Counted from the stretch's first letter, positions 1 through 47,635 are shown. The stretch is 64,000 nt of DNA from an uncultured Alistipes sp. (GCA_905213895.1 CAJMKE010000002.1:30124-94123), one strand, 5' to 3'. A program made the numbers and translations. Notes: generated by a model not told the origin, from the sequence alone.

Positions 1-721
1 GTGGGCGGCGAAGTGGTCGATCGAGGAGATACAGGCGGAGGCGCAATTTATGGGTTACATTTCGTTCCAGCGCGAAATGATGAATAACCCGATCACGGAG
101 GGGGCGACGTTCCGCCACGAATGGATCAAGTGGAAAAACCCGCTGCCGCTGAATCGTTACGACTGCCTCGTGGCGTATTGCGACCCCTCGTTCAAGGGAT
201 CGAGCAAAAACGATTTCAAGGCGATCAAACTATGGGGCAAGGTCGGGCAGGAGTTGCACCACCTTGCGGCGTTCGTGCGCCAGTGCTCCGTCGCCGAAAT
301 GGTGCGCTGGTTCTATGATCTGCACGAAAGATTGCCGCAGGACGTCGTATGCGAATACTACATCGAGGCGAATTTCCTGCAAGACATCCTGCTCGACGAG
401 TTCACGCGCGAGGGCAACCTACGCGGCTACCAACTGCCGATCCGCGCCGATCGACGTAAGAAGCCCGACAAGTTCCAGCGCATCGAAGCCATATCGCCGT
501 TATGGGAACGCGGGTTCGTGTACTATAACGCCAAACTGCGCAACGATCCCGATATGCTCGCGGGGCTGGAACAGACTCTTGCTTTTGAAAAGGGTATGAG
601 CGGACACGACGACGCCCCCGATGCCGATGAGGGCGCGATATACATTTTACAACAGCGCACGCGCATTCAGGCATTCCAACCCTCTTATGGGCGGCGCACA
701 ACTCCCAAATCCGTATGGTAA
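1..721 (+). CDS. Phage terminase large subunit, C-terminal nuclease part (5-prime partial)
   Basis: The frame is open from position 2, upstream of the first ATG. Motifs VAYCDPS..G and GHDDAPDA resemble the RNaseH-like nuclease domain of large terminases. The position just before a portal gene is consistent. Confidence 0.65.
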   Translation, partial: WAAKWSIEEIQAEAQFMGYISFQREMMNNPITEGATFRHEWIKWKNPLPLNRYDCLVAYCDPSFKGSSKNDFKAIKLWGKVGQELHHLAAFVRQCSVAEMVRWFYDLHERLPQDVVCEYYIEANFLQDILLDEFTREGNLRGYQLPIRADRRKKPDKFQRIEAISPLWERGFVYYNAKLRNDPDMLAGLEQTLAFEKGMSGHDDAPDADEGAIYILQQRTRIQAFQPSYGRRTTPKSVW

Positions 722-945
722 AATTTATCAAGGCGTTGGTATTCGACTACCGACTGAAAAAGCAAATCCGCATTGCCGACGAGCGCAAGGCGGCGACAGG
801 CAAGAAGCAGTTCGTGTTGTGCATCTGCGGGCGACCTATGTGCGTCAGTAAGGCGCATATCCGCCGACTGATCGGCGAGGGTGTTTATCGCAAGGGAATA
901 ACCGTGTCGGACATCGCCGCGAAAGCGATCTACAAAACCCGTTAG
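715..945 (+). CDS. Hypothetical small phage protein
   Basis: The ORF is packed between terminase and the next head gene on the same strand. Confidence 0.3.
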   Translation: MVKFIKALVFDYRLKKQIRIADERKAATGKKQFVLCICGRPMCVSKAHIRRLIGEGVYRKGITVSDIAAKAIYKTR

Positions 946-949
946 CCGA

Positions 950-1372
950 ATGTTCCTCGAAGAAAACGACTATCGCGTGGTGTGCTGCGAAGCAGACCTC
1001 GACATCATCACGCAGAGCAGCGACGACATACGGCAGCAGGCAGAACGCATCGCGATGGACGAAATTGCGGGATATGTTCGGGCGCGGTACGACATCGAGG
1101 CGGCGTATGCAGCAGTGGGCGCGGAACGGTGCCCGTTGCTTGTGCAAATGACCGTCAGCGTTGCCCTCTACTATCTCGGTATGTGGCTGCCGCAGTTTAT
1201 GGCGTCGGAGGTACGCGAAACGCTGTACGAGAACGCAATCAACCGTCTGAAAGATATTCAGCGCGGCGCGTTCACGCCCGACCTGCCAGCCTATCCGCCC
1301 GACGACAAGGGCAATGACGCCACGAATCCGATGCGCTACGGGTCAATGGCGGCGCAACGGTACGACTATTAA
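950..1372 (+). CDS. Phage protein, possibly Mu gp36-like (DUF1320) head-associated
   Basis: The 140-aa acidic protein sits between terminase and portal in a Mu-like head module. The family assignment is from memory only. Confidence 0.3.
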   Translation: MFLEENDYRVVCCEADLDIITQSSDDIRQQAERIAMDEIAGYVRARYDIEAAYAAVGAERCPLLVQMTVSVALYYLGMWLPQFMASEVRETLYENAINRLKDIQRGAFTPDLPAYPPDDKGNDATNPMRYGSMAAQRYDY

Positions 1373-1394
1373 ACAGCGTTCAAACACCGATTGA

Positions 1395-2639
1395 ATGAAA
1401 CGTAAAGACAACACGGAACAGACACTCACCACAATAGAATCCCTGCGCCTTGCAGCGCAGCGCAACAACAAGGAGGGCGGCGATATGCAGAAGCGCAAGA
1501 ACCTCCTTATGCTGCTTAACCAACAGACGCCGAGCCTCACGAAGCAGGACATCGCGCGGTGGCGTGCCGCGTGGCAAATGGCACTCAACATCGAGAACCC
1601 GAAGCGGGCGAACCTATACGACATCTATACGGACGTATTGATCGACCTGCACCTTACGGGCTGTATTTCCCAGCGTATGGGTAAAACCCTGTTGAAGTCG
1701 TTCGTCATCAAGAACCCCGACGGTTCGGAGAACGAAGATGCGCAGAAGATATTCGAGAGCCAATGGTTCTACGATTTTATGCTTTACGCCCTCGATAGCC
1801 GCTACTGGGGGCACTCGCTCGTACAGTTGGGCGACGTCATAACCGACGCAAACGGCGTGCGCAAGTTCTCCGACGTGGAACTCGTGCCGCGCAAGCACGT
1901 CGTGCCCGAAAAGGGCGTGATCCTGCGCGAGCAGAGCGACGACTGGCGCGACGGCTTCGACTACCGCAAGGGGGCGATCGCCGACTGGTGCGTGGAGATC
2001 GGGGGCAGCCGCGACTTGGGGCTGCTGCTCAAATGCGCCCCGCATTCACTGTCGAAAAAGAATATGACCGCCTATTGGGACGTGTTCGGCGAAATCTTCG
2101 GAATGCCGATGCGCATCGGTAAAACCAACTCGCAGAACCCCGCCGACCGCCGACAGTTGGAAGCGATGCTCGCCGAAATGGGGGCAGCTGGTTGGGCGCT
2201 GTTTCCCGACGGCACGGACATCGAGATCAAGGAATCGACGCGCGGCGATGCTTACAACGTCTATGACAAGCGTATTGACCGAGCCAACTCCGAAATCTCG
2301 AAAGGCATACTGAACCAAACAATGACTATCGACAGCGGTTCGTCTTTGTCGCAATCCGAAACGCACCTCGAAGTGTTCGAGAACGTCTGCGCTGCCGATC
2401 ACAAACTGATTCAGTACATCTTGATCGACCGTATGATCCCGAAGATGATAAAGTTCGGCTTTCTGTTTGCGGGTTTGTCGTTGGACTGGGAGATCGCGGC
2501 GACCTACACACCCGAACAGCAACGCGAACTCGAACGAATGCTGTTGCAATACTACACCATCGACGAGGAGTATTTCATCGATAAATACAAAATCAAGATC
2601 ACGGGCAGGCGCGAAGATACGAGCGGTTTTTTCGAGTAG
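1395..2639 (+). CDS. Phage portal protein, Mu gp29-like (DUF935 family)
   Basis: The 414-aa protein has size and composition typical of DUF935 portals. It is immediately followed by a MuF-like gene. Confidence 0.6.
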   Translation: MKRKDNTEQTLTTIESLRLAAQRNNKEGGDMQKRKNLLMLLNQQTPSLTKQDIARWRAAWQMALNIENPKRANLYDIYTDVLIDLHLTGCISQRMGKTLLKSFVIKNPDGSENEDAQKIFESQWFYDFMLYALDSRYWGHSLVQLGDVITDANGVRKFSDVELVPRKHVVPEKGVILREQSDDWRDGFDYRKGAIADWCVEIGGSRDLGLLLKCAPHSLSKKNMTAYWDVFGEIFGMPMRIGKTNSQNPADRRQLEAMLAEMGAAGWALFPDGTDIEIKESTRGDAYNVYDKRIDRANSEISKGILNQTMTIDSGSSLSQSETHLEVFENVCAADHKLIQYILIDRMIPKMIKFGFLFAGLSLDWEIAATYTPEQQRELERMLLQYYTIDEEYFIDKYKIKITGRREDTSGFFE

Positions 2640-2728
2640 GGGGCGACAAGGACAAAGGCGATAGCCCCCAATCTCCGAAAACCCCGAATAACGCCCGTAA
2701 AGAACATTACAGGCTGTTTAATCGCGCG

Positions 2729-4321
2729 GTGGGCGAATTGTACGCACCCGATATTCTGCGGCTGGCAAAAAGCCCCGAAACGAATAATATCGCATTCGAC
2801 CGCAAGACGTTCAACGATGTTGTTGCGTGGTTGCACCGCGAGGGGCATTTTTCCGCCGATATGCTCGCCGATCCGCACGCTCGGCGACTGATCGAGGCGA
2901 CATACGACGTTTTGAACGGCGCGATAGAAACGTCCGTCAAACAAGAGGTGCCCGCAGAACTTACCGCTGCGCTGCGTAATAATGCGTTCATATTTTCGGG
3001 CTTCAAGACCTATAATACTCTTTCGGAACTTGGGCTGGAACTGACCGACGACAAGGGAGCGGTAAAGCCGTTCGCAAAATTCATCGAAGATGTGCATAAG
3101 ATCGACGAGCGATATAATGGCGCATACCTGTTCGCCGAATACAATCACGCCGTACATTCGTCGCAAATGGCGGTCAAGTGGCACGACATCATAAAAGACG
3201 GCGACGAGTATAACCTTCAATATCGCACGGCGGGCGACGACCGTGTGCGCGAAGCTCACGCGCGGCTCGATGGCGTAACCCTGCCGCCCAACGACAAGTT
3301 TTGGGATCACTACCTGCCGCCCAACGGCTGGAACTGCCGCTGTCAGGTCGTGCAGGTGCTGCGCGAGGACTATGCCGTCAGCGACAGCGACGCCGCGACG
3401 AAGTGGGGCGACGAGTGCACCAAAGAGCCGAAGCAGCAAATTTTTCGGTTCAACGCGGGCAAAGAGTTGAAGTTGTTCCCGCCGAAACACCCGTATTACA
3501 AGGTGCCCAAAGAAGCAAAAACGGTTGTCGAACAGATCGCTGTGCGAGCCAATCCAGCAACGCCACAATTTACTGCAAAAACGATTGAGGAGGCTACACA
3601 GCAGTTCGTCGATAAGTTAGGCGTTAAATGCGCGTTGAACGGGTTCAAGAAGAAAGACTTGGCGCAAGTCAAAGATATTTTCGACTGCGTGGCGCTTCAC
3701 TTTACCAACTATCCCGAATTGCGTCGAAAAATCAAATTCGTCGGTTCGATAAGCGGTCGTGTGAAAATGCTTGAAGACGTGAAATTTCAAGAGTTACGTG
3801 CGCTGTATCCGCAAATGTTGGAGGAGGCAATACGCAAATACGCCCGTAGTTTCGCTCGCAAACACGCAGGAGCAAACACACACACTTACGCATATTCTCA
3901 CGGTGCATTTTCTGAATATGAATTAAACGGTGTAGCATTCAACTCGACGTGGGCGGGCGACAAAATAAAAGATTCCTTGCGCCGCGATGTGGAGTGTCGA
4001 TTCCATCCGATAGGATGTGATACGGTCAAAGCCGTATTCGATCACGAACTCGGGCACAAACTCGATGAGTTGTTGTCGTTATATACCGATCCCGATTTTT
4101 TGGCGATTTACAATCCTGCCAAAGCACAAGGCGAACAATACATAACCGATAACCTTTCGCACTATGCGTATAATTCCTCAATGTTCCGCAAGTCGAATTA
4201 TACACCGCAAAAGGAGTTTATTGCGGAGGCATGGAGCGAATACCTAAACAATGAAAAACCGCGACCGATTGCAGTCGCGGTAGGTGAACTTATAAAGCGT
4301 AAATACAATGCGAAAAAGTAG
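2729..4321 (+). CDS. MuF-like head morphogenesis protein (SPP1 gp7 family) with a C-terminal HExxH (putative zincin) extension
   Basis: The MuF core motif REAHARLDG..FW..LPPNGWNCRCQV lies at about aa 170-215. The C-terminal roughly 240 aa contain HELGH (nt 4044-4058) with a downstream EAWSEY. Confidence 0.7.
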   Translation: MGELYAPDILRLAKSPETNNIAFDRKTFNDVVAWLHREGHFSADMLADPHARRLIEATYDVLNGAIETSVKQEVPAELTAALRNNAFIFSGFKTYNTLSELGLELTDDKGAVKPFAKFIEDVHKIDERYNGAYLFAEYNHAVHSSQMAVKWHDIIKDGDEYNLQYRTAGDDRVREAHARLDGVTLPPNDKFWDHYLPPNGWNCRCQVVQVLREDYAVSDSDAATKWGDECTKEPKQQIFRFNAGKELKLFPPKHPYYKVPKEAKTVVEQIAVRANPATPQFTAKTIEEATQQFVDKLGVKCALNGFKKKDLAQVKDIFDCVALHFTNYPELRRKIKFVGSISGRVKMLEDVKFQELRALYPQMLEEAIRKYARSFARKHAGANTHTYAYSHGAFSEYELNGVAFNSTWAGDKIKDSLRRDVECRFHPIGCDTVKAVFDHELGHKLDELLSLYTDPDFLAIYNPAKAQGEQYITDNLSHYAYNSSMFRKSNYTPQKEFIAEAWSEYLNNEKPRPIAVAVGELIKRKYNAKK

Positions 4322-4323
4322 AA

Positions 4324-4551
4324 TCATACATCTGCGGCTTCATAGGTGCGCAACACTTCGCGCTCCTTGTCGGTTTCAAAAATATAATCACCGCGCTGTC
4401 CGTCGATCACCTTATTGTGGCTTTCAGCATTGTCGTATATATCCAGTGGGATAATATCAAACGCAGCGCATTTGATACCCTCCTTGTAGTGCTTACAATC
4501 CTCGCAGGAGAACGGCAACGACCTTTCAACGTCGATCAAGTGGTTCATTAC
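4324..4551 (-). CDS. Hypothetical small Cys-containing protein
   Basis: The ATG lies at 4551 and codes for 75 aa. The longer annotated ORF 4324..5013 overlaps the better-supported + gene 4591..5055 and is not believed. Confidence 0.3.
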   Translation of the reverse strand, partial: VMNHLIDVERSLPFSCEDCKHYKEGIKCAAFDIIPLDIYDNAESHNKVIDGQRGDYIFETDKEREVLRTYEAADV

Positions 4552-4590
4552 TGGATATAATTTTCGCAAAAATAACGTTTTTTTGATTAG

Positions 4591-5055
4591 ATGGCAAATA
4601 TTTACGATAAAATTCTGCGTGATGCCCGCGTCAAACTTACGTCGATGTTCGACGAGAATTTCCGACGGCAGGGGTTTTTCGGCAAAAAGTGGACGCCGAC
4701 CAAAGTGTCGAAAGTGAACAAGGCAGGCAAACGCGGTTCGATATTGATCGTTACGGGACAGATGCGCCGCTCGATCCGTTCGCAGATTCGCGGTAATGCC
4801 GTCGTATTCACTTCCGACCTCCCATATACCTCCCTGCACAACGAGGGCGGACATTTCGCCGTAACAGTGCGTCAGCACACTCGAACGGTCAAGGGCAAGA
4901 CGTTCGCAGTCAAGAGCCACACGCGGACGCTGACGATGCCGCAGCGACAGTTCATCGGCGACCACGCCGACGTGCAAAAGGCGCTCGGCGACATCGTGAA
5001 CCGCAACCTGCAAAAGTTCAGCGAGGATTTGGTTAAAAAATGTATGAAGCGATGA
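4591..5055 (+). CDS. Phage virion morphogenesis protein, Mu G-like
   Basis: The 154-aa basic protein follows the F-like gene, as in the Mu head module order. Confidence 0.45.
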   Translation: MANIYDKILRDARVKLTSMFDENFRRQGFFGKKWTPTKVSKVNKAGKRGSILIVTGQMRRSIRSQIRGNAVVFTSDLPYTSLHNEGGHFAVTVRQHTRTVKGKTFAVKSHTRTLTMPQRQFIGDHADVQKALGDIVNRNLQKFSEDLVKKCMKR

Positions 5056-5651
5056 GAATACGATTGTATAACGCGATTACGGCGCGTTTGGCGCACGTTC
5101 GCACTGTCGAGGGTGTTCCTGTATTCCTCGACCCGAAACAAACCGACAAAACGGCGCAAATGCCGCCGCAGGCAATCAAAGCATTCGACCTTTGGAACGA
5201 GAATGTCGTACAACTCACCAAACAGCGACCGTTCGAGGTGCCTGCTGTGTTCGTCGAGTTTTTGCCGATCGTATGGTCGTATGCTGGGCGCAAGGCAAAA
5301 CACGCCGACGTAACAGTGCGCTTGCATATCGTTACGGCGACGCTCGCCACGCCGAACTCGCCCTACAAAGAGCAAGCGCTGTACCGCCTCGCGTTGATCC
5401 GCGCCATCGATCAGGCGCTGACGAATTTTTCGGGTGCGGTCGATGATCGCGGGCTGGGCTTCGGGACGTTCGTGCCGCAAGAATCCGACACCGACCACAA
5501 CCACGAACAGGTGTGCGAGGACATCGAGGTGTGGCGAGCGTCGTGTTTCGACCTCTCGGCGGTCGGCAGAAATCTCGTAGCAACGCCTCTTGACGTTACG
5601 CTCGACGACGGCGAGATATTCGCAGCCGTATTCGGCGAAGCGTATGTATAG
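5040..5651 (+). CDS. Hypothetical phage structural-module protein
   Basis: The 203-aa protein is the last gene of the + strand head block before the convergent terminator. Confidence 0.35.
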   Translation: MYEAMRIRLYNAITARLAHVRTVEGVPVFLDPKQTDKTAQMPPQAIKAFDLWNENVVQLTKQRPFEVPAVFVEFLPIVWSYAGRKAKHADVTVRLHIVTATLATPNSPYKEQALYRLALIRAIDQALTNFSGAVDDRGLGFGTFVPQESDTDHNHEQVCEDIEVWRASCFDLSAVGRNLVATPLDVTLDDGEIFAAVFGEAYV

Positions 5652-5658
5652 ACGAAGA

Positions 5659-5685
5659 AACGCCCCGCAGATTTTGCAGGGCGTT
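5659..5685. terminator. Hairpin between the convergent head block and early block
   Basis: AACGCCCCGCAG-ATTT-TGCAGGGCGTT pairs 10 of 11 positions, with T-rich flanks on the minus side. Confidence 0.45.
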
Positions 5686-5690
5686 CTTGC

Positions 5691-5924
5691 TTAAAAGAGA
5701 TTTAGTTGTCGGTCATCTTCCGAATTTGCCGACCGAAGTTCTCCGAGCGGCGTATTGATATACGACAGGTAGGTTCGATAGCACATCGGATAGATCGGGT
5801 AAACGTATTTCTTCCATATCGCCTTGTAGCACTTCTGCAAGTTCCCTGCTTCATAATGTTGCTGGGTGATCTTACAAACGTGCTGAATGCGCAGAAGTGT
5901 ATTTTTATGGCGTTTATTACCCAT
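5691..5924 (-). CDS. Hypothetical protein
   Basis: The ORF lies at the distal end of the minus-strand early operon in a lower-GC patch. An alternative + ORF 5706..6119 exists. Confidence 0.2.
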   Translation of the reverse strand: MGNKRHKNTLLRIQHVCKITQQHYEAGNLQKCYKAIWKKYVYPIYPMCYRTYLSYINTPLGELRSANSEDDRQLNLF

Positions 5925-6000
5925 TTACCGAAAACTTTGACTATCTTTGCAGAAGTGTTCCCGCACTCTGCTCGTCTATCGTTTTCGGTGGCGAGTTTTT

Positions 6001-6207
6001 TTATTCAAGTGTGCCGTATGGCGAAACCTCGACCGTACCCTCGATATGTTTCAATATTCGACCTGTTCCGCCGCATATCGGGCACGTTTCGGTTGCAGAC
6101 GCACGTTCAAATGTTTTGAACTCCCGAACGGTTTCTACCGTTCCCGCGCCGCCGCAGTTGCGACACAACTCGATTTTGTCATAGGCAAACTCCTTGCGCT
6201 TGTTCAT
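6001..6207 (-). CDS. DnaJ-type zinc-finger small protein
   Basis: There are two CxxCxGxG motifs: CRNCGGAG and CPICGGTG. Confidence 0.45.
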   Translation of the reverse strand: MNKRKEFAYDKIELCRNCGGAGTVETVREFKTFERASATETCPICGGTGRILKHIEGTVEVSPYGTLE

Positions 6208-6215
6208 TCAGCAAT

Positions 6216-6731
6216 CTAATCCTCCTTTTCCTTTTTGGGTTCAACGTAAAATGTTTCGTCCTGCACGACGTAGATGCCGCACTTCTCCATCACCTGCTGG
6301 CACTCCTCCGTATCGCGGTCGGCGAGCAGCTTATCCCGCGCAGGCTCCTCGACCGTGCGGATATAGTCCTTTCCGAACTCTTTAAGCAGATTGAGAACCG
6401 CCGCCCACGTAAACGTCTTTTTCGGTTTGAGTTTCGGCATACCGATACGGAAACCGATCGTGCCGTGCGTGGTTTCGATGCTCCGCCGTTTCGTGAACAA
6501 CTCCTCGCGGTTCTCGGTGGCGAACACCTGCATCTTCTCGAACGCATCGGCTTTCATCTGCTCCAACTCCGCCAGCCGATCGGCGTGCTGCTCTCGGATC
6601 GCAACGAACTGACGATCCATCTCCGCGTTGATGTGCTGCACCTCCGCGTCGGCGGAGGCATACAGACCGAACGCCTCTTCCATCTGCTCACGGGTTACGC
6701 CCGTGATGATTGTTTTTTTCTGTCTTGCCAT
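6216..6731 (-). CDS. gam: Mu Gam-like host-nuclease inhibitor (DNA-end binding protein)
   Basis: The 171-aa protein has a coiled-coil-rich composition like Mu Gam. It lies downstream of the A/B transposition genes, as in Mu. Confidence 0.6.
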   Translation of the reverse strand: MARQKKTIITGVTREQMEEAFGLYASADAEVQHINAEMDRQFVAIREQHADRLAELEQMKADAFEKMQVFATENREELFTKRRSIETTHGTIGFRIGMPKLKPKKTFTWAAVLNLLKEFGKDYIRTVEEPARDKLLADRDTEECQQVMEKCGIYVVQDETFYVEPKKEKED

Positions 6732-6932
6732 AGTCTTTGTTTTTAATTGGGTTTCATCTGTCTTTTACGCCTGCGTTGCAAGCGGGTTAATCTTTGCTTT
6801 CGTCGAGTTTGCCGACGTCGGAGGGGTTCCTGCCGTTTATTTCGTTTTGGCAATGTGTCCCGATAGTGTTGTAGTATCGTGGCACAGCCTCGCATTACCG
6901 TTGCAAGGTGCGTAAACACTTCGGCAAGCCGT

Positions 6933-7250
6933 TCAAACTTTGCTTTCATACGTTCCGTATTCGGGCTGGTGTAGTATTTCCAAACCGCACTCTTGGGCGA
7001 TGTTCGCCTCGATGCGTGCGCCCCGACTGTCGCCCCAGTCGGGCAAGAGGTAGATCGCATCGCAGTCGAATAACATCGCGAGGCTCGCCGTCATCTGCTG
7101 CGCCCACGTCGCCGTCGAGGGCTGTCCATTGTCGAGCGGATTGACTGGTTCGTGTCCGAATGCCCGTATTTGCGCCTCCGCCTTTGCGAATTTCTCTTTG
7201 ACTTGTTCGGTAGGCAAATCCGAAATTTTGCCGCTGATGTAGATTTTCAT
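6933..7250 (-). CDS. DUF4406-like (nucleoside 2-deoxyribosyltransferase-like) protein
   Basis: It has an MKIYISGKI N-terminus and a DWGDSRGA..E..A motif. This small family is common in phages. Confidence 0.35.
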   Translation of the reverse strand: MKIYISGKISDLPTEQVKEKFAKAEAQIRAFGHEPVNPLDNGQPSTATWAQQMTASLAMLFDCDAIYLLPDWGDSRGARIEANIAQECGLEILHQPEYGTYESKV

Positions 7251-7261
7251 AGTGGTAATTG

Positions 7262-7735
7262 TTAGTTATAAAGTTGATTATCTTTCGTTATTCCGCGCGA
7301 GAACATTCCTGCGATATATTCGTCGGCAATACTCTGAACCGCTTTCTCGTCGCGCTGCTTTTTAAGGAAGCAGTTGTACAGGTTACGCAGACGCTCGGTC
7401 GGTATCTTGTTGAAGTCGTTGTACCCTGTCGCACGGCAGGCAATGCTCTTGATCGTGTCGATGTTGTGCTGCTTGCCTGCCAGCCGAAGCCACCCGCCGA
7501 TCGACGCGATAACGCGCTTGCGCAGATTGTCAGCCTCTTTCGCTCCTCTGTTGAGTTGAAGTTCGAGCGTGTGGCACAAATCCATCAAATCGTGGTTGTC
7601 TATATCCTTGCTGCTCTCGACGCCATATCCGCCAATCAGGGCGCGTTTCTCCTCCTCCGTCATCCCCAACCGCGTGCAGAGGGTGTGGAACTGGCGCAGG
7701 AGCCATTTTTGCTGTTTATCCATTATTGTTGTCAT
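7262..7735 (-). CDS. Mu gp16/GemA-like (DUF1018) protein
   Basis: The family assignment is from recollection only. Confidence 0.3.
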   Translation of the reverse strand: MTTIMDKQQKWLLRQFHTLCTRLGMTEEEKRALIGGYGVESSKDIDNHDLMDLCHTLELQLNRGAKEADNLRKRVIASIGGWLRLAGKQHNIDTIKSIACRATGYNDFNKIPTERLRNLYNCFLKKQRDEKAVQSIADEYIAGMFSRGITKDNQLYN

Positions 7736-7743
7736 ATCCGAAT

Positions 7744-8046
7744 TTATTTGTCGTATAATTTTGCGATCAATTTCAATTCATTCAAAAATCGAGTTTCATC
7801 GTTTCGTTCTGTCGTCGTCCCGTGATAGCGGAATTTAGCGAAGCAGAACGGGCATTCGAAAACCATCATATAGCCCGACGGCGTGCAACACCAGCCGACC
7901 AATCGCGCGCGAGGAAGTCGGTTTCCCCAATTCGGGCCGAGTCCCCAATTGTAGCCGTCCCCCGATTTTCCGCACACGCATTTGAAATTGGGACGATAAG
8001 CGATCGCTTCATACTGTGCGAATTTTTGTAAATCATTAACTCCCAT
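7744..8046 (-). CDS. Hypothetical zinc-ribbon protein
   Basis: Cys pairs CVCG and CPFC suggest a zinc ribbon. The start is taken at the internal Met so that it does not overlap the upstream gene; the ORF track allows a start at 8094. Confidence 0.3.
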   Translation of the reverse strand: MGVNDLQKFAQYEAIAYRPNFKCVCGKSGDGYNWGLGPNWGNRLPRARLVGWCCTPSGYMMVFECPFCFAKFRYHGTTTERNDETRFLNELKLIAKLYDK

Positions 8047-8051
8047 AACAT

Positions 8052-8687
8052 TTATAATTTGCTTGCCCGATATTCGGTTGCGCCCTCCTCCCATATCACG
8101 AAGTCCTCGCCGCCACCCTCCGCCGTTTTGAATCGGGTCGTAACATATCCGACGAAACCCTCGACGTGCACCTTGACCTCCGAAAGTTTGCGGACGTGTT
8201 GTGCGATGGCGGGATAGGGTTTGTTGTTCTCCTCATGGGCGATGAAGATGAACAGTTTGTCGGGGAACTCATCGATCAACTCCGCGAACACGGGGCGCGT
8301 GAAGCCGACCAGCGCAGTAATCGAATCGATCACTACAACGTCGGGGCTTTTGCGCCTGCGCAGACGCTCGCACAGTTGTTTGATACCCTCTTTCGAGTAA
8401 ACGACTACTTTCGTCCCGACGCTCTGCATATCGGCGTCATTCCACGCATTCTGAAACGATTTCGACAAGCCTTGCTCCAACGTGTCGTAAGCGCACCGAT
8501 CGACGAACTGCGTTAGGTATTTCAGCAGTTCGAGGGCGAAATGCGTCTTGCCGCAGCCACTCTCGCCAAAGATGATCCACGCGCCGCGTAGTTCGGGCTT
8601 GCCGAACGATGCGAGCCACGTGCCCGTGAAATCGGCGATCGTGAACTTGGCGTCGCACACGTTTTTATTGCTTATCGCGCGTTCCAT
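8052..8687 (-). CDS. P-loop NTPase (RecA/KaiC-like ATPase)
   Basis: Walker A GESGCGKTH and Walker B-like VVVIDSI are present. Confidence 0.5.
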   Translation of the reverse strand: MERAISNKNVCDAKFTIADFTGTWLASFGKPELRGAWIIFGESGCGKTHFALELLKYLTQFVDRCAYDTLEQGLSKSFQNAWNDADMQSVGTKVVVYSKEGIKQLCERLRRRKSPDVVVIDSITALVGFTRPVFAELIDEFPDKLFIFIAHEENNKPYPAIAQHVRKLSEVKVHVEGFVGYVTTRFKTAEGGGEDFVIWEEGATEYRASKL

Positions 8688-8689
8688 GT

Positions 8690-8974
8690 CTACTCTTCCG
8701 TTATCAGATGTATAGTCAGATAAGGCACATCGTTAATCGTCTTAATCGTTATGCTGTTCTCTCTTACGTCGAAACGATGGGTAATGCCGAGAAACTCCGT
8801 TGCATTCCTGCGTTTATAGGTAAAATCCGCCAGATAGCGCAGTACAGTTTCCATTATGGCGTACCTTTCGATGTCGGGATAACTCTTGCTTCGGTCAAAG
8901 GGGAAACATGCCAAAACGCACAACAGCCACAAAGGTTTCCTCTTGTTATGCCTTTCAATTACAAACCTTGCCAT
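8690..8974 (-). CDS. Hypothetical phage protein
   Basis: The ORF sits in the early operon between the B-like gene and the ATPase. Confidence 0.35.
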   Translation of the reverse strand: MARFVIERHNKRKPLWLLCVLACFPFDRSKSYPDIERYAIMETVLRYLADFTYKRRNATEFLGITHRFDVRENSITIKTINDVPYLTIHLITEE

Positions 8975-8986
8975 TTCGTCCGCTGT

Positions 8987-9841
8987 TTATTTGGTGGTTG
9001 AACGTTGTTTAACCGCGTGCACGAGGCGCTTTACACGACGCAGGTCGCAATCGCAATCCTCCACGATATGACGAATCGTCTGTTTATCCTCGATCCCGTT
9101 GGCAATGCAGACAGCGGAGATATTGCCGCTGTTCACGACGGGCATCGGAATGAATTTGCGCCCTATGCGGCTGTATATTTCGCGGTAGCCCTTGCGGTTG
9201 TTCTGCACACCCCGTTTGATGCGCTTTTCGAGATATTGTGTTGCCGTAAGTACGATACCGACGTGATCCTCTAACTTGTTGTAAATCGTAATGAAGAAGT
9301 AGAGCACTTGGTCGCTCAATTTGTCGGCTTCGTCCAGCACGAGCAGCACCCCGTCGCGGCGTTTGAGTTGGTGAACCGCTTCGGCAACCATATCGACGAC
9401 CGTCGTGCCTGCGTAGTCCACACCCAACTCACGGAGCAACTCCGAAAGGAATTGCTTGCGGTTCCAGTATTCCGAGCAGGAGAGCGCCAGCACGTTGCGG
9501 TTGCAATCCGCGTATGCCTTAATCGCCTGCGACTTGCCGCACCCAGCGTCGCCCGTTACAGCGAACACGAGCGAATTGCGCTGCGCATCGGTCAATACGT
9601 CGTACATGCGTCGATAGCCGTCTGTTTCGACTACCACCCAACCGCGCGGGTCGTAGCCGATCTGCGACGCAACCGTGCGCCACATTTCGTCCGAAATCAA
9701 ATCCCATTTGCCGTTTACGATCTGACTGATCGTCGCCGCACTGACGCCGCGCATCGAGCGTGCCGCCTTGTTTTGACTTTCCTTGCCGCCGACGTACTCC
9801 GCGAGGCGGTCGGCGATTGCCTGTTTTTCGGTAGTTTTCAT
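8987..9841 (-). CDS. MuB-like transposition ATPase (AAA+ target-DNA activator)
   Basis: It has an N-terminal HTH-like region and Walker A GDAGCGKS. It lies immediately downstream of the DDE transposase, the classic A-B pair. Confidence 0.65.
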   Translation of the reverse strand: MKTTEKQAIADRLAEYVGGKESQNKAARSMRGVSAATISQIVNGKWDLISDEMWRTVASQIGYDPRGWVVVETDGYRRMYDVLTDAQRNSLVFAVTGDAGCGKSQAIKAYADCNRNVLALSCSEYWNRKQFLSELLRELGVDYAGTTVVDMVAEAVHQLKRRDGVLLVLDEADKLSDQVLYFFITIYNKLEDHVGIVLTATQYLEKRIKRGVQNNRKGYREIYSRIGRKFIPMPVVNSGNISAVCIANGIEDKQTIRHIVEDCDCDLRRVKRLVHAVKQRSTTK

Positions 9842-9856
9842 ATCCTTATTTTGCGT

Positions 9857-11863
9857 TTAGTATAAATCGAAAGTTGATGTTTTGCGACCCGTGATCGGGG
9901 TTATATCCTGCGCTTCGACGTCCTCGATGTTAGCACCAGCCAACCGCTTCTCGTTGCGACGGTCTTTGTGCTGACCCTGCGAATCGCAGATAAGGGTGCG
10001 CGTCAGCGTGTTGCTTAATGCAGGATTGCGCGTGAACAGTTCATCGACGCGCTCGTTCGCTTCGGCGAGCGTTCCGACCACGTGCGGCTCTAACTGCTGG
10101 CTGTTGAAGCAGCGAATGCGGTCGAGTTCCTCCGCGTCGCCCTCCTTGCGATCCGCAAGCGCCATCGGCTGGACGAACTTTTCTTCGAGTAGGAATTTCA
10201 ACGAACCGTCCTCATTCACAGCGAGCACCCGTTCGGGGCGTTCGGGATCGTATTTGATGTTCCAGCGGATATGCGAATACTTGCGGAAATTGACATCGAA
10301 GCAGTCGTAAGAGCGTTCCGCGCCGAGCAGGCGGATATTCAACCCCGAACCCTCCAATGCGTTTTTGCAACCCGTTTCCGCGCCGAACGTCAGTAGATAC
10401 TGCTCGTCGGTCATCGGTAGCCGTCGCTCGGCGGGAACGCAGCCCCACGCTGCGACGAACTTGTCCCGCTTCGCCGCCCGCTCGCGCTCGATGATCCACG
10501 CGATCTGCGCGCGGCATTCTTCCTCGTTGGGGAACTGCTTGCGCAGCAGGTTGAGCGCGTCGGCGTTCGGTTGCAGATTCTTGTTCGACGTGATGCCGAA
10601 GCCCGACCAGTTCGGGCACAACTGGCAATACTTTTTATTGAGGGTGAGGAAATAGCGTTCGATCGGTTTTGCTTTGGCATTGCCGACACGTGCGGGCGTT
10701 ACCTTGTCGCCACTCACGCCGTAGATCGGCGTCATCGCTTTCATCGCGTAGTGGTCGCTTTGGATTTGCAGTGCGCGGTAGCGTTTGCCGAACAGTTCGC
10801 AGGTGTGGTTGGCTGCGTTGCGCAGGGCTTCGGTGATAAGCGCCGCACACTCTTGTTCGCCGACGGCATATCCGATCGGGTATTTGTTGAACACGTCGAG
10901 CACCACAACCACCGTCAAACGGTTCGAGTAAGTCGTTACGGTCTTTCCCTTGCGTGTCGTCGTTTTCTGATAATACAACTCGGCGTCCCAGCCGTCGAGC
11001 GACCACATATAAAGCGGAGCGGTCGGCGCGGAACGCTTGACCTGCATTGCCCGCTGGTTGTAAAACTCTTTCGCGCCGAGCCGTCCTGCGGCGGTTTCGA
11101 GATCGTACCGTTTGCGCCACGTTTTCAGCGCCGACGCCGTGATTGTAGACCACTCCATTTTTTCGGCGATGATATTGTAGAGCATTGCGATCTGCTCGTT
11201 GTCGAGGTTGCGGTGGTCGGACATCAGGCGAATAATGATCGACCGCTGTTCGTCCGTGCGGATCGACGAGGCATTTGCGTTTTGGAACTTGCCCGATACG
11301 AGGATTTCGTAATTCGGCTGACCGCCGCGATAGAACTCGTTGAACTTATCCTGTAAGCGGCGCGGGTTTTCGGGCAGCGAGTGCGGGAACTTGTCGGCGA
11401 TGCGCGGCAGAGCTTGCGCTGCGCGACGCCAAAAATCCGACCTGCGCAGGCGCGGTTTGCTGACGCTCGCGCGGCGGGAATCGGCGCGCTCGATCACCGA
11501 GCGGAACGCCGCCAGTATCGAAGCGTTATTCGTGTATTCGATCTGCTTGTCGTAATTCAAACCCCGCACGTCGTCGATCTTATAATCGGCGTAGAACTGC
11601 GCCGCAACACCGTCGGGCGTGATGCTGTCGATAAACTCGCGGCTTTCTGCCTGCGCCCGAAGATCGGGGTAACGACGGTAAACTTCGACACGGTATTTCG
11701 TCGGCAGACTATCTGGGATATACAATGCCTCTGATCCCCTACAACCACGACGGACTTGCTGTATCTTTCCCTCTGCAACCCACTTTTTGATAAGCGAGGC
11801 GCTCATTATACCGTCGGTCAATTCTGCGTATGAAATACAATATTTTCCGTTATAGAGTTCCAT
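9857..11863 (-). CDS. MuA-like DDE transposase (rve/Mu transposase family)
   Basis: The 668-aa protein has an LDGWDAELYY region typical of a Mu-transposase catalytic core. It is paired with the B-like ATPase. Confidence 0.75.
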   Translation of the reverse strand: MELYNGKYCISYAELTDGIMSASLIKKWVAEGKIQQVRRGCRGSEALYIPDSLPTKYRVEVYRRYPDLRAQAESREFIDSITPDGVAAQFYADYKIDDVRGLNYDKQIEYTNNASILAAFRSVIERADSRRASVSKPRLRRSDFWRRAAQALPRIADKFPHSLPENPRRLQDKFNEFYRGGQPNYEILVSGKFQNANASSIRTDEQRSIIIRLMSDHRNLDNEQIAMLYNIIAEKMEWSTITASALKTWRKRYDLETAAGRLGAKEFYNQRAMQVKRSAPTAPLYMWSLDGWDAELYYQKTTTRKGKTVTTYSNRLTVVVVLDVFNKYPIGYAVGEQECAALITEALRNAANHTCELFGKRYRALQIQSDHYAMKAMTPIYGVSGDKVTPARVGNAKAKPIERYFLTLNKKYCQLCPNWSGFGITSNKNLQPNADALNLLRKQFPNEEECRAQIAWIIERERAAKRDKFVAAWGCVPAERRLPMTDEQYLLTFGAETGCKNALEGSGLNIRLLGAERSYDCFDVNFRKYSHIRWNIKYDPERPERVLAVNEDGSLKFLLEEKFVQPMALADRKEGDAEELDRIRCFNSQQLEPHVVGTLAEANERVDELFTRNPALSNTLTRTLICDSQGQHKDRRNEKRLAGANIEDVEAQDITPITGRKTSTFDLY

Positions 11864-11974
11864 ATCCTTACTCTTTGTCGCTCCCGTGTCGGTATCGCTC
11901 CGAACAACGCCTGTGCGTTCACGGGATTTGCCTGTTTTATCCTTTCAAAAGATTAAGTTTCAAATTCTTAAAGC

Positions 11975-12688
11975 CTAAAATTGAAAAGCGGACACCGCGC
12001 GCACGTAGTAGTTGAGGTTCTTAGCGAGGTCGTCCGCGTACCCGTTGCCCATAGCCACGCCCCACGCGCACCGATTATCATTTTCGCAGGCGATACTTGA
12101 CCAGTAGAACCCCATCACCATAGGCGGCAACCCCATAGTCAGGAAGCAGGCGTTTACCTCTGCGATATTGTCTGCGATGATCTTCAACTGCGCCACCGTC
12201 GGCAGGTGCCATTTGCCTGCTCCGATACTGCCGTGCGAATACTTGCGGCAAAAGTCGGCAGCGGGCGAACCAATGAAATTGTATTGCGTATCTCCGTCCG
12301 AATCGACGTGTAACGCGTCCGAGTATTTTTCGATGATGCGGTCGGTGGCTTGTGCAGCATCGAGCGACTCCTTGTCGGTAATAAGTTCGACATCTTCCCG
12401 ACCGCTGTCGGCGGGGCTCCACTGTGCTGCAATCGTATTGTGCGGGGCAATTACGAATGCGGCTGTATTCGTGATAATTACAACTCCCACATCTGCCGAA
12501 TGATTATGATCCCAATCCTGCCGCTCAACGAGTTTCAACTTGTTGCAATCTTCAATCAAGCACCATACGCCGATCGGGCGCTTTTTGAATTGCTCCTCTC
12601 CGAAAAGGGCATGTAACACCTCACGACCTTGCCCACCAGTGCGTCCGTACAAGTCGCACACTTGATCCTTTGTTAATTTTACCTCCAT
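11975..12688 (-). CDS. Hypothetical phage early protein
   Basis: The 237-aa ORF lies between the ner-like gene and the transposase. No motif was recognised. Confidence 0.4.
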   Translation of the reverse strand: MEVKLTKDQVCDLYGRTGGQGREVLHALFGEEQFKKRPIGVWCLIEDCNKLKLVERQDWDHNHSADVGVVIITNTAAFVIAPHNTIAAQWSPADSGREDVELITDKESLDAAQATDRIIEKYSDALHVDSDGDTQYNFIGSPAADFCRKYSHGSIGAGKWHLPTVAQLKIIADNIAEVNACFLTMGLPPMVMGFYWSSIACENDNRCAWGVAMGNGYADDLAKNLNYYVRAVSAFQF

Positions 12689-12713
12689 AACAATCTGTTT
12701 TATTGAGTTGTGT

Positions 12714-12935
12714 CTAAATCTTGTCGACCCGAAGTCCGTTTGCGGTCATTTCAAGCAAATAACCGTTGCGTACAAAATCATTTATCAAGGACGGGGCGCA
12801 TTTGGAAATATGAATCGTGTAGTTCATCGATCCGATGTTTTCCACAAAGTGGTTTAACGTGCCGTTGATATGCACCGTCGTTGAGTGATGCCGAGCAATT
12901 ATATCTATTGCCGTATTGAAATGCTCCTGCGTCAT
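12714..12935 (-). CDS. Hypothetical phage early protein
   Basis: The 73-aa ORF is in the early operon. Confidence 0.3.
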   Translation of the reverse strand: MTQEHFNTAIDIIARHHSTTVHINGTLNHFVENIGSMNYTIHISKCAPSLINDFVRNGYLLEMTANGLRVDKI

Positions 12936-12938
12936 AAC

Positions 12939-13115
12939 TCACGCGACCTCGAAGTCGATTTGTCCCAGCATCGGGTCTGTTTCATACATTCGTTGCATAA
13001 ACTCCTCCGATGCCGTAAATTCTATTGCATAGCCGTCGAACGAAAAGGGCTTTTTATACACGAGCAGGTGCGACGCCAGCCGCGCGAGCATTTTATTTGT
13101 GCTGTAAGTTTTCAT
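12939..13115 (-). CDS. Hypothetical small phage early protein
   Basis: The start is taken at the internal Met (MKTYSTNK) to avoid overlapping the upstream gene. Confidence 0.25.
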   Translation of the reverse strand: MKTYSTNKMLARLASHLLVYKKPFSFDGYAIEFTASEEFMQRMYETDPMLGQIDFEVA

Positions 13116-13122
13116 CTCGCTA

Positions 13123-13335
13123 CTATTTGAGTTCGTTGATTGCTTTTTCCAAATTCGGACGCACCCATGATTCGAGGTAAATCTGTACCCGCCCGCGGAT
13201 AACCTCTGCTGTTTCGGGGTCGATCTTCTTGTCGAAGCCCACCAAATCAAACAAACACGTGTAATTGTTGAGGTGATCCGCCGACAGGCGTTCCTGCACC
13301 ACTTCGAGTAATTGTCTTGTTGCTACTTTTTTCAT
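13123..13335 (-). CDS. Hypothetical small phage early protein
   Basis: The 70-aa ORF is tightly packed after the ner-like gene. Confidence 0.3.
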   Translation of the reverse strand: MKKVATRQLLEVVQERLSADHLNNYTCLFDLVGFDKKIDPETAEVIRGRVQIYLESWVRPNLEKAINELK

Positions 13336-13345
13336 TGTTTTGCGA

Positions 13346-13525
13346 TTATTTGTTGTTTGTATTATTCACTACTACACCGCCACGTTTGATTGCGGCGGCT
13401 CTGATCTTCTTTGCAAGTGTGGTATTTGTCTGACCCCGAAGCGCAGCACGCACTGTCGGGAGGCTCGTTTTGAACATATTAGCGAGATACTGTCGCTCGC
13501 CATATTCAACTAATACCTTTGCCAT
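13346..13525 (-). CDS. Ner/Cro-like small HTH DNA-binding protein (59 aa; absent from the ORF track because it is under 60 aa)
   Basis: Hand translation of the reverse complement gives MAKVLVEYGERQYLANMFKTSLPTVRAALRGQTNTTLAKKIRAAAIKRGGVVVNNTNNK. It is the first gene of the early operon, divergent from the CI-like gene. Confidence 0.45.
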   Translation of the reverse strand: MAKVLVEYGERQYLANMFKTSLPTVRAALRGQTNTTLAKKIRAAAIKRGGVVVNNTNNK

Positions 13526-13660
13526 TTCTCTGTTTTTAATTATTTTACTATCTTTGTTCGCAAACTTTCATTTGTGAAAGCCTTTGCAAATATATACGCA
13601 TTTTGCGTAATAAACAAGAAAGATAGTAAATTGTTTCGCAATATGAGTAAAAAAGATATG
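13526..13660. promoter_or_regulatory. Divergent repressor / ner-like switch region with repeated TTTGCR / YGCAAA half-sites and an imperfect palindrome
   Basis: The palindrome is GCAAACTTTCATTTGTGAAAGCCTTTGC. TTTGC(A/G) / CGCAA(A) motifs occur at about 13558, 13589, 13607 and 13656. Confidence 0.35.
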
Positions 13661-14284
13661 TTGCAATGCCTAATAGACTATTATTCAGGTGGGAATAAAA
13701 CGCAGTTTGCCAATAAATTAGGCATATCGCCACAAGGATTGAGCAGTTGGTATAGCCGAAATACTTTCGATATAGAATTGATTTACGCAAAATGCGAAGG
13801 TGTATCAGCTCAATGGCTATTAACAGGTCAAGGCGATATGCTACGATCTGATGCCGAAGCACAAATTGCCGCAGCAGAACCCGTAACCATCGGAGGCATT
13901 CCCCTGATCCCGATCGAGGCGATGGCAGGTGTACTGTCAGGCAATAGCGCGCAAGTGATGGAGCGAGATTGCGAGCACTACAATATCCCGATGTTCAAAG
14001 GGGCGGAGTTCTTGATCCGCATAAGCGGCGATTCGATGCAGCCGAAGTATTACAGCGGTGATATAGTAGCCTGCAAGCGTCTACCGCTCGATACGTTCTT
14101 TCAGTGGAATCGGGTTTATGTAGTCGATAGCGAGCAGGGGGTAATCATCAAACGTGTGCGACGCGGAAGCGACGACCGACACATCGTTTTCGTATCGGAC
14201 AACACCGCATACGAGCCGTTCGAGTTGCCATTGGAGAAAATATATTCGATAGCCCTTGTAGTAGGTGTCGTAAGAGCCGAATAA
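13574..14284 (+). CDS. Phage CI/LexA-like repressor (N-terminal XRE HTH plus C-terminal S24 peptidase domain)
   Basis: The HTH is TQFANKLGISPQGLSSWYS. The S24 catalytic motif is GDSMQP with a downstream lysine (IIKRV). The true start may be an internal Met at 13643. Confidence 0.75.
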   Translation: MKAFANIYAFCVINKKDSKLFRNMSKKDMLQCLIDYYSGGNKTQFANKLGISPQGLSSWYSRNTFDIELIYAKCEGVSAQWLLTGQGDMLRSDAEAQIAAAEPVTIGGIPLIPIEAMAGVLSGNSAQVMERDCEHYNIPMFKGAEFLIRISGDSMQPKYYSGDIVACKRLPLDTFFQWNRVYVVDSEQGVIIKRVRRGSDDRHIVFVSDNTAYEPFELPLEKIYSIALVVGVVRAE

Positions 14285-14900
14285 GAGTAAAATATACCCT
14301 TTTTTAGGGCTGTAAAAAGAAATATGCGTGCATATTTCACTGTAAAACAGTGTATTATGTGCACATTTTCCATTGCGAAATACTTGTCGAAAAAGTGCAT
14401 TAAAGGGGGGCGAATCACTGAAAAACGCCCAATTTTGCCCCGTTTTTTTGCATTATAGGGGTTGTTATCCGTCAAAATTTGCACCCCAAAAGTAACCCCA
14501 ATGGTAACTCCATTGTCATTTTTAGGGCATTTTCAAGCAAAACGAAATGTACAATTTCAGTTTGCGGGCGTGTTATTCAAGCGGCATTCAAACGTCGTTT
14601 AGGTAATATTTGAACACCTTGTCGTTTTGCCCGATTTTAGGCGATTTCGCGGTGTTACGGCATTCTTGCCGATATTCGGGCATAGAAAAGGGGCGAAACC
14701 GTAGTAACGCCCCGCAATATCCAAGCAAAATACAACTTATCGCCTCAACCGATCGTGCGGAATACAAGCAAAATCCAAGCAAATACACATTTCGTTTGCG
14801 CGCCGAAATTTTGTCGTTCTATCGTAACTATCTGATAACACTACTGTTGTACCGCTTTCTTACTCTTGTCTATTTGTACATTTCGTTTTCCTGCCCATAA
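14285..14900. other. Non-coding AT-richer region that probably holds the prophage end and transposase-binding repeats
   Basis: Repeated motifs TTTCACTGTAAAAC, TTTCCATTGCGAAAT, GTCGAAAAAG and CCAAGCAAAAT(A/C)CA recur here. They resemble Mu end sites of the type TTTCAYT..RCGAAA. The exact end was not found. Confidence 0.3.
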
Positions 14901-14902
14901 AT

Positions 14903-14929
14903 GTCTTTAAGGTCCCTAAGGACTTTAAC
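14903..14929. repeat. Period-9 tandem repeat, copy a (GTCTTTAAG GTCCCTAAG GACTTTAAC)
   Basis: It belongs to the same unit family as six other intergenic sites in the window. Confidence 0.7.
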
Positions 14930-15029
14930 TACCCAGACAACCTTTATCACAACTCCCAAACAAACATTAAACATCACAGCCATGCATTTCAAGAAACCGA
15001 CCACAAAAACCAAATGCTCAATCGCAAAC

Positions 15030-17750: not shown

Positions 17751-17814
17751 GTTTTTGTTATTTTGGTTTTTCGTATATTTATATTTGAGTTGCAATTCAA
17801 ATTACATTGCCAAC

Positions 17815-17888
17815 GTCATTCTGAGCGAAGCGAAGAATCTGCTTCGATTGAGTTTTTGTTTTAGATCCTTCGCTTCGCTCAGGATGAC
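17815..17888. other. Long inverted repeat (21-bp arms, 1 mismatch, 32-nt spacer) between the two M3 peptidase paralogs
   Basis: The arms are GTCATTCTGAGCGAAGCGAAG and CTTCGCTTCGCTCAGGATGAC. The inner sub-hairpin is CGAAG..CTTCG. Confidence 0.5.
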
Positions 17889-17928
17889 GATAGGGTAAGA
17901 TGTCCTTCTTCAAATATTTTTGTTTTAT

Positions 17929-41110: not shown

Positions 41111-41131
41111 AAAGTGCATTTGGAGAATTTT

Positions 41132-41139
41132 GGGGGGGG
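41132..41139. repeat. G8 homopolymer in the intergenic region upstream of the GT2 gene
   Basis: The context is GAGAATTTTGGGGGGGGACTAAAAAAC. Confidence 0.9.
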
Positions 41140-43861: not shown

Positions 43862-43957
43862 TTATTACATATAAAATTAGGACCGACATACATTTTATTG
43901 ATAAGTTGCTAAACAACACTATATTTAGCGGTGTATTGATTTCATAAAAAATAATAT

Positions 43958-47627: not shown

Positions 47628-47635
47628 AATACTAT

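Follow-up and report, generated by a model that had tools for sequence, protein, structure and literature searches.

The packaging genes of a Mu-like Alistipes prophage face its early operon, an arrangement shared with other transposable phages of Bacteroidota

Why should the packaging genes of a Mu-like prophage run against its early genes? The question is raised by a 64,000-nucleotide stretch of DNA from an uncultured Alistipes sp. (GCA_905213895.1 CAJMKE010000002.1:30124-94123; "the window" below is this whole stretch, with positions counted from its first letter), which begins with two opposing blocks of prophage genes. A first-pass annotation had described early genes running leftward from a repressor switch and a terminase-portal-F-G block running rightward to converge on them at 5651/5691, with no capsid or tail genes after G, and had offered two explanations: a phage lineage of different architecture whose structural genes lie upstream of the window, or a defective prophage in which the block had been inverted or truncated. 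Our open reading frame (ORF) listing and scans against Pfam, PHROG and NCBIfam gave the same strands and coordinates for the window genes, the same exact convergence of the packaging (+) and early (-) operons, and no capsid or tail gene within the window. We conclude that window 1-14899 very probably holds the ~15 kb on the repressor side of a transposable (Mu-like) prophage of a gut Alistipes, some 35 kb long and apparently intact, with a flipped packaging block that is typical of its lineage.

As the first of the two explanations had it, the genes for capsid and tail are found a short way upstream of the window. Metagenome contigs of the same prophage, found in public assemblies through the exact gp36-like protein, extend 9 kb to the left of the window and are 99.4-100% identical to it over the shared part. 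In these contigs the full-length terminase large subunit gene terL (511 aa) follows a 154-aa small subunit gene, terS, and beyond an intergenic region of 276 bp the opposite strand carries late genes: within 9 kb come a Mu-like prohead protease and the major head protein (phrog_267, E 1e-35), next an amidase with three small ORFs, and then the tail genes for a DUF2586 sheath (phrog_907), the tube and the tape measure. The lengths of these structural genes match or come close to those in relatives. They are on the same strand as the early genes, and only the ~7.4-kb block from terS to a 203-aa ORF is flipped. Relatives with 89-92% nucleotide identity (L024/L041, L059, L273 and L278) show the order further on, with baseplate genes and a 350-aa Lcl_C protein followed at the far phage end by the cassette of a diversity-generating retroelement (DGR), namely bAvd, a template repeat and a reverse transcriptase (RT), then by four ORFs, by mom or a Dam-type methylase, and by the other phage end. 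The 35,409-bp contig of one relative stops 3 nt after a family-type right terminus, from which we estimate that the whole element is ~35 kb long. The far junction of the window prophage would accordingly fall ~20 kb to the left of window position 1.

The arrangement recurs throughout the relatives. Megablast of 20 kb against deposited phages gave no match, and relatives were therefore sought at the protein level; an alignment of six portals was too divergent to seed a locus search. The census comprised 80 IMG/VR relatives with portals 56-96% identical, 74 of them informative. In every informative locus terS, terL, gp36, portal, F and G run against MuA/MuB/Gam, and against protease/capsid/amidase/sheath, wherever these are reached: both sides are present in 44 loci, the late genes alone in 16 and the early genes alone in 14, and there are 0 exceptions. 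The same three-part layout is found in Porphyromonas gingivalis phage007a, TCUEAP3, Hankyphage p00 and fF4. The first-pass annotation had named as grounds against its reading a complete co-linear structural module upstream, which would mean simply a different but intact gene order, or alignment to a known characterised phage, and essentially both were found: the upstream module appears intact, and the element matches characterised phages. The flipped packaging block is the standard design of Bacteroidota transposable phages, already known from several deposited and studied genomes, so nothing special has to be invoked to explain this locus. Elements with such a block should not be marked as defective by prophage callers.

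The features of the prophage in the window, in order, are as follows.

2 to 721, + strand: C-terminus of the terminase large subunit, 239 aa, cut by the window start (weak Terminase_6C match, E 0.007)
715 to 945, + strand: 76-aa conserved ORF between terL and the adaptor (phrog_22181, E 1e-20; + strand in 72 relatives)
950 to 1372, + strand: Mu gp36-like head-tail adaptor (PF07030, E 4e-7)
1395 to 2639, + strand: Mu-type portal, 414 aa (PF06074, E 4e-71)
2729 to 4321, + strand: Mu F-like head morphogenesis protein (PF04233, E 6e-13; TIGR01641, E 7e-11)
4324 to 4548, - strand: 74-aa ORF antisense to the packaging block, between F and G, called as a gene in contigs
4591 to 5055, + strand: Mu G-like virion morphogenesis protein (PF05069, E 2e-12)
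5040 to 5651, + strand: 203-aa conserved ORF, last of the packaging operon (phrog_6911, E 1e-18; + strand in 64 relatives)
5655 to 5688: GC-rich hairpin in the gap where the two operons converge (fold energy -17.7 kcal/mol; z = -3.3 relative to shuffled sequences)
5691 to 5924, - strand: 77-aa last gene of the early/middle operon (- strand in 62 relatives)
6001 to 6207, - strand: DnaJ-type CxxCxGxG zinc-finger protein (PF00684, E 2e-7)
6216 to 6731, - strand: Gam, a Ku-like DNA-end binding protein (PF07352, E 1e-35)
6933 to 7250, - strand: DUF4406 protein (PF14359, E 4e-22)
7262 to 8094, - strand: two early ORFs of 157 and 116 aa (sole match phrog_286, unknown function, E 3e-5, for the 157-aa ORF)
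8052 to 8687, - strand: P-loop ATPase (weak AAA-family matches)
between the P-loop ATPase and the MuB-like gene, - strand: 94-aa ORF
8987 to 9841, - strand: MuB-like AAA+ transposition ATPase, directly downstream of the transposase (AAA_22, E 4e-18; TniB, E 8e-5)
9857 to 11863, - strand: DDE transposase of MuA/TnsB type, 668 aa (weak rve match, residues 282-354)
11975 to 12688, - strand: Lcl_C/DUF1566 protein with C-type-lectin fold (PF07603, E 2e-9)
11982 to 12072, - strand: variable repeat of a DGR (VR2), in the 3'-terminal part of the Lcl_C gene (78% match to the L059 template repeat)
12714 to 13335, - strand: three small early ORFs (73, 58 and 70 aa), called as genes in contigs
13346 to 13525, - strand: 59-aa ORF, first of the early operon, in the Ner/Cro position (phrog_16858, unknown function, E 9e-11)
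13526 to 13642: divergent repressor/early promoter switch, 117 bp, with back-to-back Bacteroidetes-type -7 motifs
13643 to 14284, + strand: CI-type repressor with S24 self-cleaving peptidase domain (PF00717, E 7e-14; PF07022, E 1e-7)
14540 to 14899: repressor-proximal phage end with three ACATTTCGTTT copies (14540 on the - strand, 14787 and 14878 on the + strand)

The matches for the portal gpH, F, G, gp36 and Gam (PF06074, PF04233, PF05069, PF07030 and PF07352) all exceeded the gathering score. The DDE transposase gene is followed at once by that of the MuB-type AAA+ ATPase, as expected of a transposable phage. The closest annotated relative of the transposase is the "MuA-like transposase" of TCUEAP3 (42.7% identity over 93%), and a profile of eight homologues, in all of which D290, D370 and E402 are invariant, matches TnsB (E 6e-6) over the catalytic and C-terminal regions. 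A direct sequence search of the PDB with the transposase returned only a spurious flavohemoglobin match.

The phage terminus is at window position 14899, where the prophage ends in ...TCCTGCCCATA (…CCTGCCCATA). One copy of ACATTTCGTTT is at the terminus, a second lies 91 bp inward of it, and a third, in inverted orientation, is 338 bp inward of the terminal copy; the relatives' other ends carry two adjacent copies. Mu has spaced sites at its left end and adjacent sites at its right end, which the spaced and adjacent ACATTTCGTTT copies recall. Three independent junctions (the window, L015 and L152) agree up to ...CCCATA (14899) and then run into unrelated flanks. L015, a short contig from another sample, is 99.3% identical to window 11284-14901 before it enters unrelated DNA, and L152, an IMG/VR relative, shares the terminal 25 nt before it enters a third flank; where relatives have their other end, ...GCCGATTATA runs into five unrelated flanks. 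The same element thus lies at unrelated sites with a precise and conserved terminus, which is the behaviour of a transposable phage, and the second insertion site in L015 shows its mobility. The alternative target site in L015 had no match in the window.

A search for 5-bp target-site duplications and terminal TG...CA had been proposed, both of which are specific to Mu, whereas the end here, ...CCCATA (TATGGG inward), is of TA type. Read inward, the window end is TATGGGCAGGAAAACGAAATGTACA / TATGGGCAGGAAAACGAAATG. It matches the family pattern TATnnnnnnnAAAACGA, a comparison made for the repressor-side end only, and so do the left end of P. gingivalis phage007a (TATAGGGCACAAAACGACACG), fF4 (TATAATTATTAAAACCAAATA), the right end of L059 (TATAATCGGCAAAACGATTTG) and the ends of TCUEAP3. 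Across the termini compared (window 14899 and the ends of L019, L022, L066, L053, L056, L059, L273 and L278) family termini begin with TA (TATGGG/TATAATCGG...), not with the TG...CA of Mu. A common terminus, TAT(A)-N6/7-AAAAC(G/C)A, thus unites transposable phages of Bacteroidota whose hosts belong to four orders or families. This terminus type, with its TA ends and AAAACGA box, helps to delimit such prophages. A scan of viral contigs with a guessed and poorly chosen left junction (AATGT + TATAATCGG) gave unspecific 14-mer matches, none with the AAAACGA box.

Several points weigh against the reading as an intact transposable prophage. Its completeness beyond ~9 kb upstream of the window, its DGR cassette and its target-site duplication are predicted from the relatives of 89-92% identity. 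The transposase has no direct sequence similarity to E. coli MuA. No homologue of GemA or Mor was found among the early ORFs (Pfam, NCBIfam and PHROG; E <= 0.01), and GemA and the Mor/C regulators are core genes of Saltoviridae (PMC7761591). The divergent late region, where the late promoters are assumed to lie, shows no canonical Bacteroidetes -7 motif, which would fit activator-dependent late promoters. Finally, all long contigs carry the prophage at one chromosomal site, the other site being seen in one short contig only, and one sample variant, L001, has its portal gene split into two called ORFs (235 + 176 aa), so that some copies of the prophage may be decaying.

The last two points, with the lack of any capsid or tail gene after G inside the window, are also what one would cite for the second explanation of the first-pass annotation, a remnant that makes no virions, left by a recent inversion and/or truncation in which the terminase-to-G block was turned round and the genes for capsid and tail were lost. 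This does not agree with the capsid, protease, lysis and tail genes found directly upstream at or near their usual lengths, with the fact that every window ORF is open, or with the second insertion site. The arrangement is moreover that of all 74 informative relatives, down to 56% portal identity, and of fF4, TCUEAP3 and Hankyphage, which are infectious or produce particles, and we consider a defective prophage very unlikely. A discrete ~7.4-kb block in opposite orientation between two short intergenic regions might instead suggest a programmed invertible segment, which a site-specific recombinase would switch in the way that Gin switches the G segment of Mu, but there are no inverted repeats at the two boundaries (the 25 longest listed pairs are 71-89% complementary and have at least one arm in coding sequence), no recombinase or invertase domain occurs among the window proteins or the called contig genes, and the other orientation was seen in 0 of 74 relatives and in none of >20 contigs of this phage, all of which makes such a switch extremely improbable. 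We give just as little credence to mis-assembly, or to a Mu-like transposon lying beside a packaging island or satellite and so mimicking one phage: the unusual strand pattern alone speaks for it, while both junctions recur in independent assemblies from many samples (ENA, Logan and IMG/VR), the 35,409-bp contig ends 3 nt after a family-type right terminus, and complete genomes of isolated phages have the same order.

How might an intact transposable prophage with this layout be expressed? The CI/S24 repressor gene diverges from the early operon (DDE transposase, MuB-like ATPase, Gam and accessory genes), and the early and packaging operons (the latter terS, terL, 76 aa, gp36, portal, F, G and 203 aa) end at the same hairpin. 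Given its A-rich 5' side and T-rich 3' side, we read this hairpin as a probable bidirectional terminator, which would insulate the packaging operon from the early operon. A sigma-70 promoter scan at the convergent junction returned nothing useful; the sigma-70 consensus is not appropriate for Bacteroidetes. The 77-aa gene next to the hairpin had no family match in Pfam, PHROG or NCBIfam and sits where a late regulator could possibly be.

Two late operons may fire divergently from a single control region, the terS/protease intergenic region. Mu has four late promoters, Plys, PI, PP and Pmom. Its genes from lys to G and those from I onward are on different late transcripts (Plys, PI). Plys is described as a Mu late promoter (PMC9239132). 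The flipped block here would be the counterpart of the Plys unit minus lys, and the protease-capsid block that of the PI unit, which suggests that a whole operon was inverted in an ancestor. Inverting a complete transcription unit keeps the expression logic and would be a sufficient explanation for a stable arrangement; in Mu the counterpart of the flipped block is a late transcription unit of its own, which offers a simple reason why the inversion is tolerated. Integration and replication would proceed by transposition, with headful packaging from the repressor end, as in Hankyphage. The same intergenic region also holds a phage-borne tRNA-Met (CAT) (L002:7568-7640, - strand, ~1.4 kb left of window position 1; also at L024:2720-2792), and beside it a perfect 13-bp palindrome (AACAGAGTGTAAA...TTTACACTCTGTT, L002 ~7672-7705) that could be a regulatory site for the late promoters.

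Some gene assignments needed revision. The 414-aa ORF, initially labelled terminase, is the portal (27-32% identical to portals of Flavobacterium and Porphyromonas phages by tblastn), and the gp36-type adaptor sits between terminase and portal, the position of the "adaptor"/DUF1320 gene in fF4, TCUEAP3, P. gingivalis phage007a and pippi8-1. The names "GemA-like" for the 157-aa ORF and "ner-like" for the 59-aa ORF found no support in Pfam or NCBIfam, and both ORFs match only PHROGs of unknown function; a Ner/Cro role for the latter is suggested by its position. Among four early genes listed as unknowns, the one at 11975-12688 encodes the Lcl_C/DUF1566 protein, and the other three (12714-13335) indeed have no family matches in Pfam or PHROG. 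A gene comparable to the P-loop ATPase, for an ATPase or helicase, lies at or near the position after MuB in TCUEAP3, P. gingivalis phage007a and Hankyphage. In the switch the -7 motifs are TATCTTTG (+ strand, 13549) and TATATTTG (- strand, 13587), and three of the ten TAnnTTTG motifs in window 1-15000 lie within 13500-13660. The called repressor gene starts at the ATG at 13643, and its exact 213-aa product occurs on 22 contigs.

The packaging genes themselves offered further observations. Against otherwise ~99.9% identical contigs, mismatches in the portal gene are clustered at 2421-2494 and 2059-2220; 12 substitutions in 74 nt alter ~10 amino acids, which looks like a recombination patch. 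The F-like protein has, in translation, a C-terminal extension of ~300 aa with an HELGH (HExxH, metalloprotease-like) motif, and the F homologue of pippi8-1 is of similar length (537 aa). The 74-aa antisense ORF between F and G contains cysteines and had no family match in Pfam or PHROG. It is 40-89% identical in 12 relatives and antisense in all of them, and in Hankyphage a small opposite-strand ORF likewise adjoins F.

The Lcl_C gene, flanked by the small early ORFs and the gene for the transposase, raised a separate question. The final 90 nt of the gene match the template repeat of the DGR in relatives, the template used being that of the 91%-identical relative L059 (the L024 template is 99% the same) and not one from this prophage. 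The window and L015 differ at 26 positions in 3.6 kb, of which 20 fall within 12009-12055 and 19 of these at template adenines; the L062 contig has a further difference at 12019, again at a template adenine. The gene has GCGCGCGGTGTCCGCTTTTCA beyond the repeat, as does the relatives' tail-side target, while the template there has ...CCGAATTTCA, as expected for the distinction between target and template. With such a variable repeat, gene 11975-12688 appears to be a non-adjacent DGR target, and the concentration of L015 differences at DGR-mutable adenines points to recent activity. An Lcl_C-type C-terminus was also seen just past the transposase in relatives L067 and L069.

Non-adjacent DGR targets within phages and DUF1566 targets are known (PMC5758913), and no new mechanism is therefore implied. 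A diversified protein encoded in a transposition operon, with no visible signal peptide, would nevertheless be unusual. We put forward only tentatively, and as a somewhat unlikely proposal, that the DGR hypermutates both a tail-side target, as found in relatives, and a second C-type-lectin-fold gene in the early operon, >20 kb from the cassette. If this is true, the phage would have a hypervariable, probably intracellular, non-structural early protein, which could act as a diversified binder against host factors or defences rather than in receptor switching. This early-region target is the one item possibly worth experimental follow-up.

The DNA beside the prophage points to the host. Beyond the phage end the window carries:

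14982 to 15533, + strand: ORF of 183 aa without assigned function, separating the phage end from the M3 peptidase gene
15630 to 20157, - strand: two tandem paralogous M3 peptidases (706 and 742 aa), next to the prophage

Homologues of the M3 peptidase 80-87% identical are named Alistipes sp., and an RT-based scan of genome contigs found relatives (64-84%) in metagenome-assembled genomes of Alistipes/Rikenellaceae, from which we take the host to be Alistipes. A protein search with the RT, extended by looking up three cluster members, led only to relatives of 91-92% identity. The exact 183-aa protein was found solely beside the prophage in all look-ups, with no empty site seen; in a related Alistipes species the M3 peptidase adjoins galK, with neither phage nor 183-aa gene. 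The phage part of the window has a GC content of 44-58% (1-kb windows). Far from the prophage, at ~41000-57000 (+), GC falls sharply to 31-43% with strong positive GC skew over a polysaccharide locus of capsule or lipopolysaccharide type (GT2, Wzx-type flippase, Wzy, epimerases, GT1/GT4 and KAS III), which is ordinary for Bacteroidales and unrelated to the phage.

The closest comparisons depend on which module is considered. E. coli Mu has the same class of lifestyle and shares a c-type repressor, A and B, Gam, portal H, F, G, gp36 and protease I, as well as a contractile tail, mom at the right end (here in relatives) and multiple transposase-binding repeats at the ends. It differs in that Mu is fully co-linear, whereas the operon equivalent to that of Plys is inverted here; Mu has TG...CA termini and a 5-bp duplication, the prophage TA termini; and the lysin gene follows the capsid gene here and precedes terminase in Mu. 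Neither mark of Mu proper, all genes co-directional and 5'-TG...CA-3' termini, is thus found. The Winoviridae offer the same head genes in another setting: Flavobacterium phage pippi8-1 (NC_048830) has the order terS, terL, small ORF, gp36, portal, F, small ORF, G and ~170-aa ORF, followed by protease, capsid, DUF2586 sheath and tube, as here. In these non-transposable phages (pippi8-1 and FPSV-S1), however, the packaging block is co-linear with the rest, and pippi8-1 has a helicase and a VirE primase instead of a transposition module.

Several transposable phages of Bacteroidales and their kin are already described. Hankyphage p00 (BK010646), for which replicative transposition and headful packaging from the left end have been shown experimentally (PMC12135933), likewise has a MuA-MuB operon, a "DNAJ chaperone" zinc-finger gene in the early operon, flipped terS-terL-adaptor-portal-F, then protease-capsid-lysin, and a DGR near the right end. 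Its transposase is only 23-24% identical, its tail is of siphovirus type and its single DGR target adjoins the cassette, whereas the Alistipes prophage has sheath and tube genes and, apparently, a second target in the early region. A family "Alisviridae" that includes Hankyphage has been proposed (PMC10367356), and "Ca. Mubacviridae" has been introduced for Hankyphage-like Bacteroidales phages, with stress on the conserved TerS-TerL-adaptor module (bioRxiv 10.64898/2026.05.11.724261). The P. gingivalis transposable phages (phage007a_Bg4, PP754929), which insert without site specificity and are bounded by 4-bp repeats (PMC10367356), have the same layout, and their termini, TATAGGGCAC AAAACGA / TATAATCGGC AAAACGA, are very like TATGGGCAGG AAAACGA here. 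They differ in a portal fused to F (853 aa), a siphovirus-type tail and low identity (portal ~28%, transposase ~24%). The earlier remark that transposable phages of high-GC Bacteroidales are poorly characterised is fair for Alistipes and does not hold for Bacteroidales as a whole. The prophage belongs to a sheath-tailed, DGR-associated Mu-like lineage in Alistipes, and such phages were undescribed for the genus in the literature we searched.

Two phages of Flavobacteriales hosts complete the comparison. TCUEAP3, an Elizabethkingia phage isolated from wastewater (OK632026), has the same three-part layout, with the amidase after the capsid and a mom-type gene at the right end; it differs in its siphovirus-type tail (4.4-kb tape measure, no sheath), in having DUF3164 instead of a detected Gam, and in that no DGR is annotated. 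Flavobacterium columnare phage fF4 (MN850656) likewise has a repressor, an early operon with DDE transposase and ATPase, a flipped block of terS, terL, gp36/DUF1320, portal, F and G-like genes, and beyond it, on the early strand, the genes for protease, capsid and tail. It is a spontaneously induced myovirus with a contractile tail, titred in plaque-forming units, with 10 of its 50 ORFs leftward (PMC7761591), and its contractile tail is consistent with the sheath and tube genes here. Its termini begin TATAAT...AAAAC. It differs in its portal (~28% identical), its size and composition (32 kb, 36% GC), the presence in its flipped block of a gene annotated as tape measure, and the lack of an annotated DGR. 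Both the layout and the terminus of the Alistipes prophage are those of the Bacteroidota transposable phages with a flipped packaging operon.

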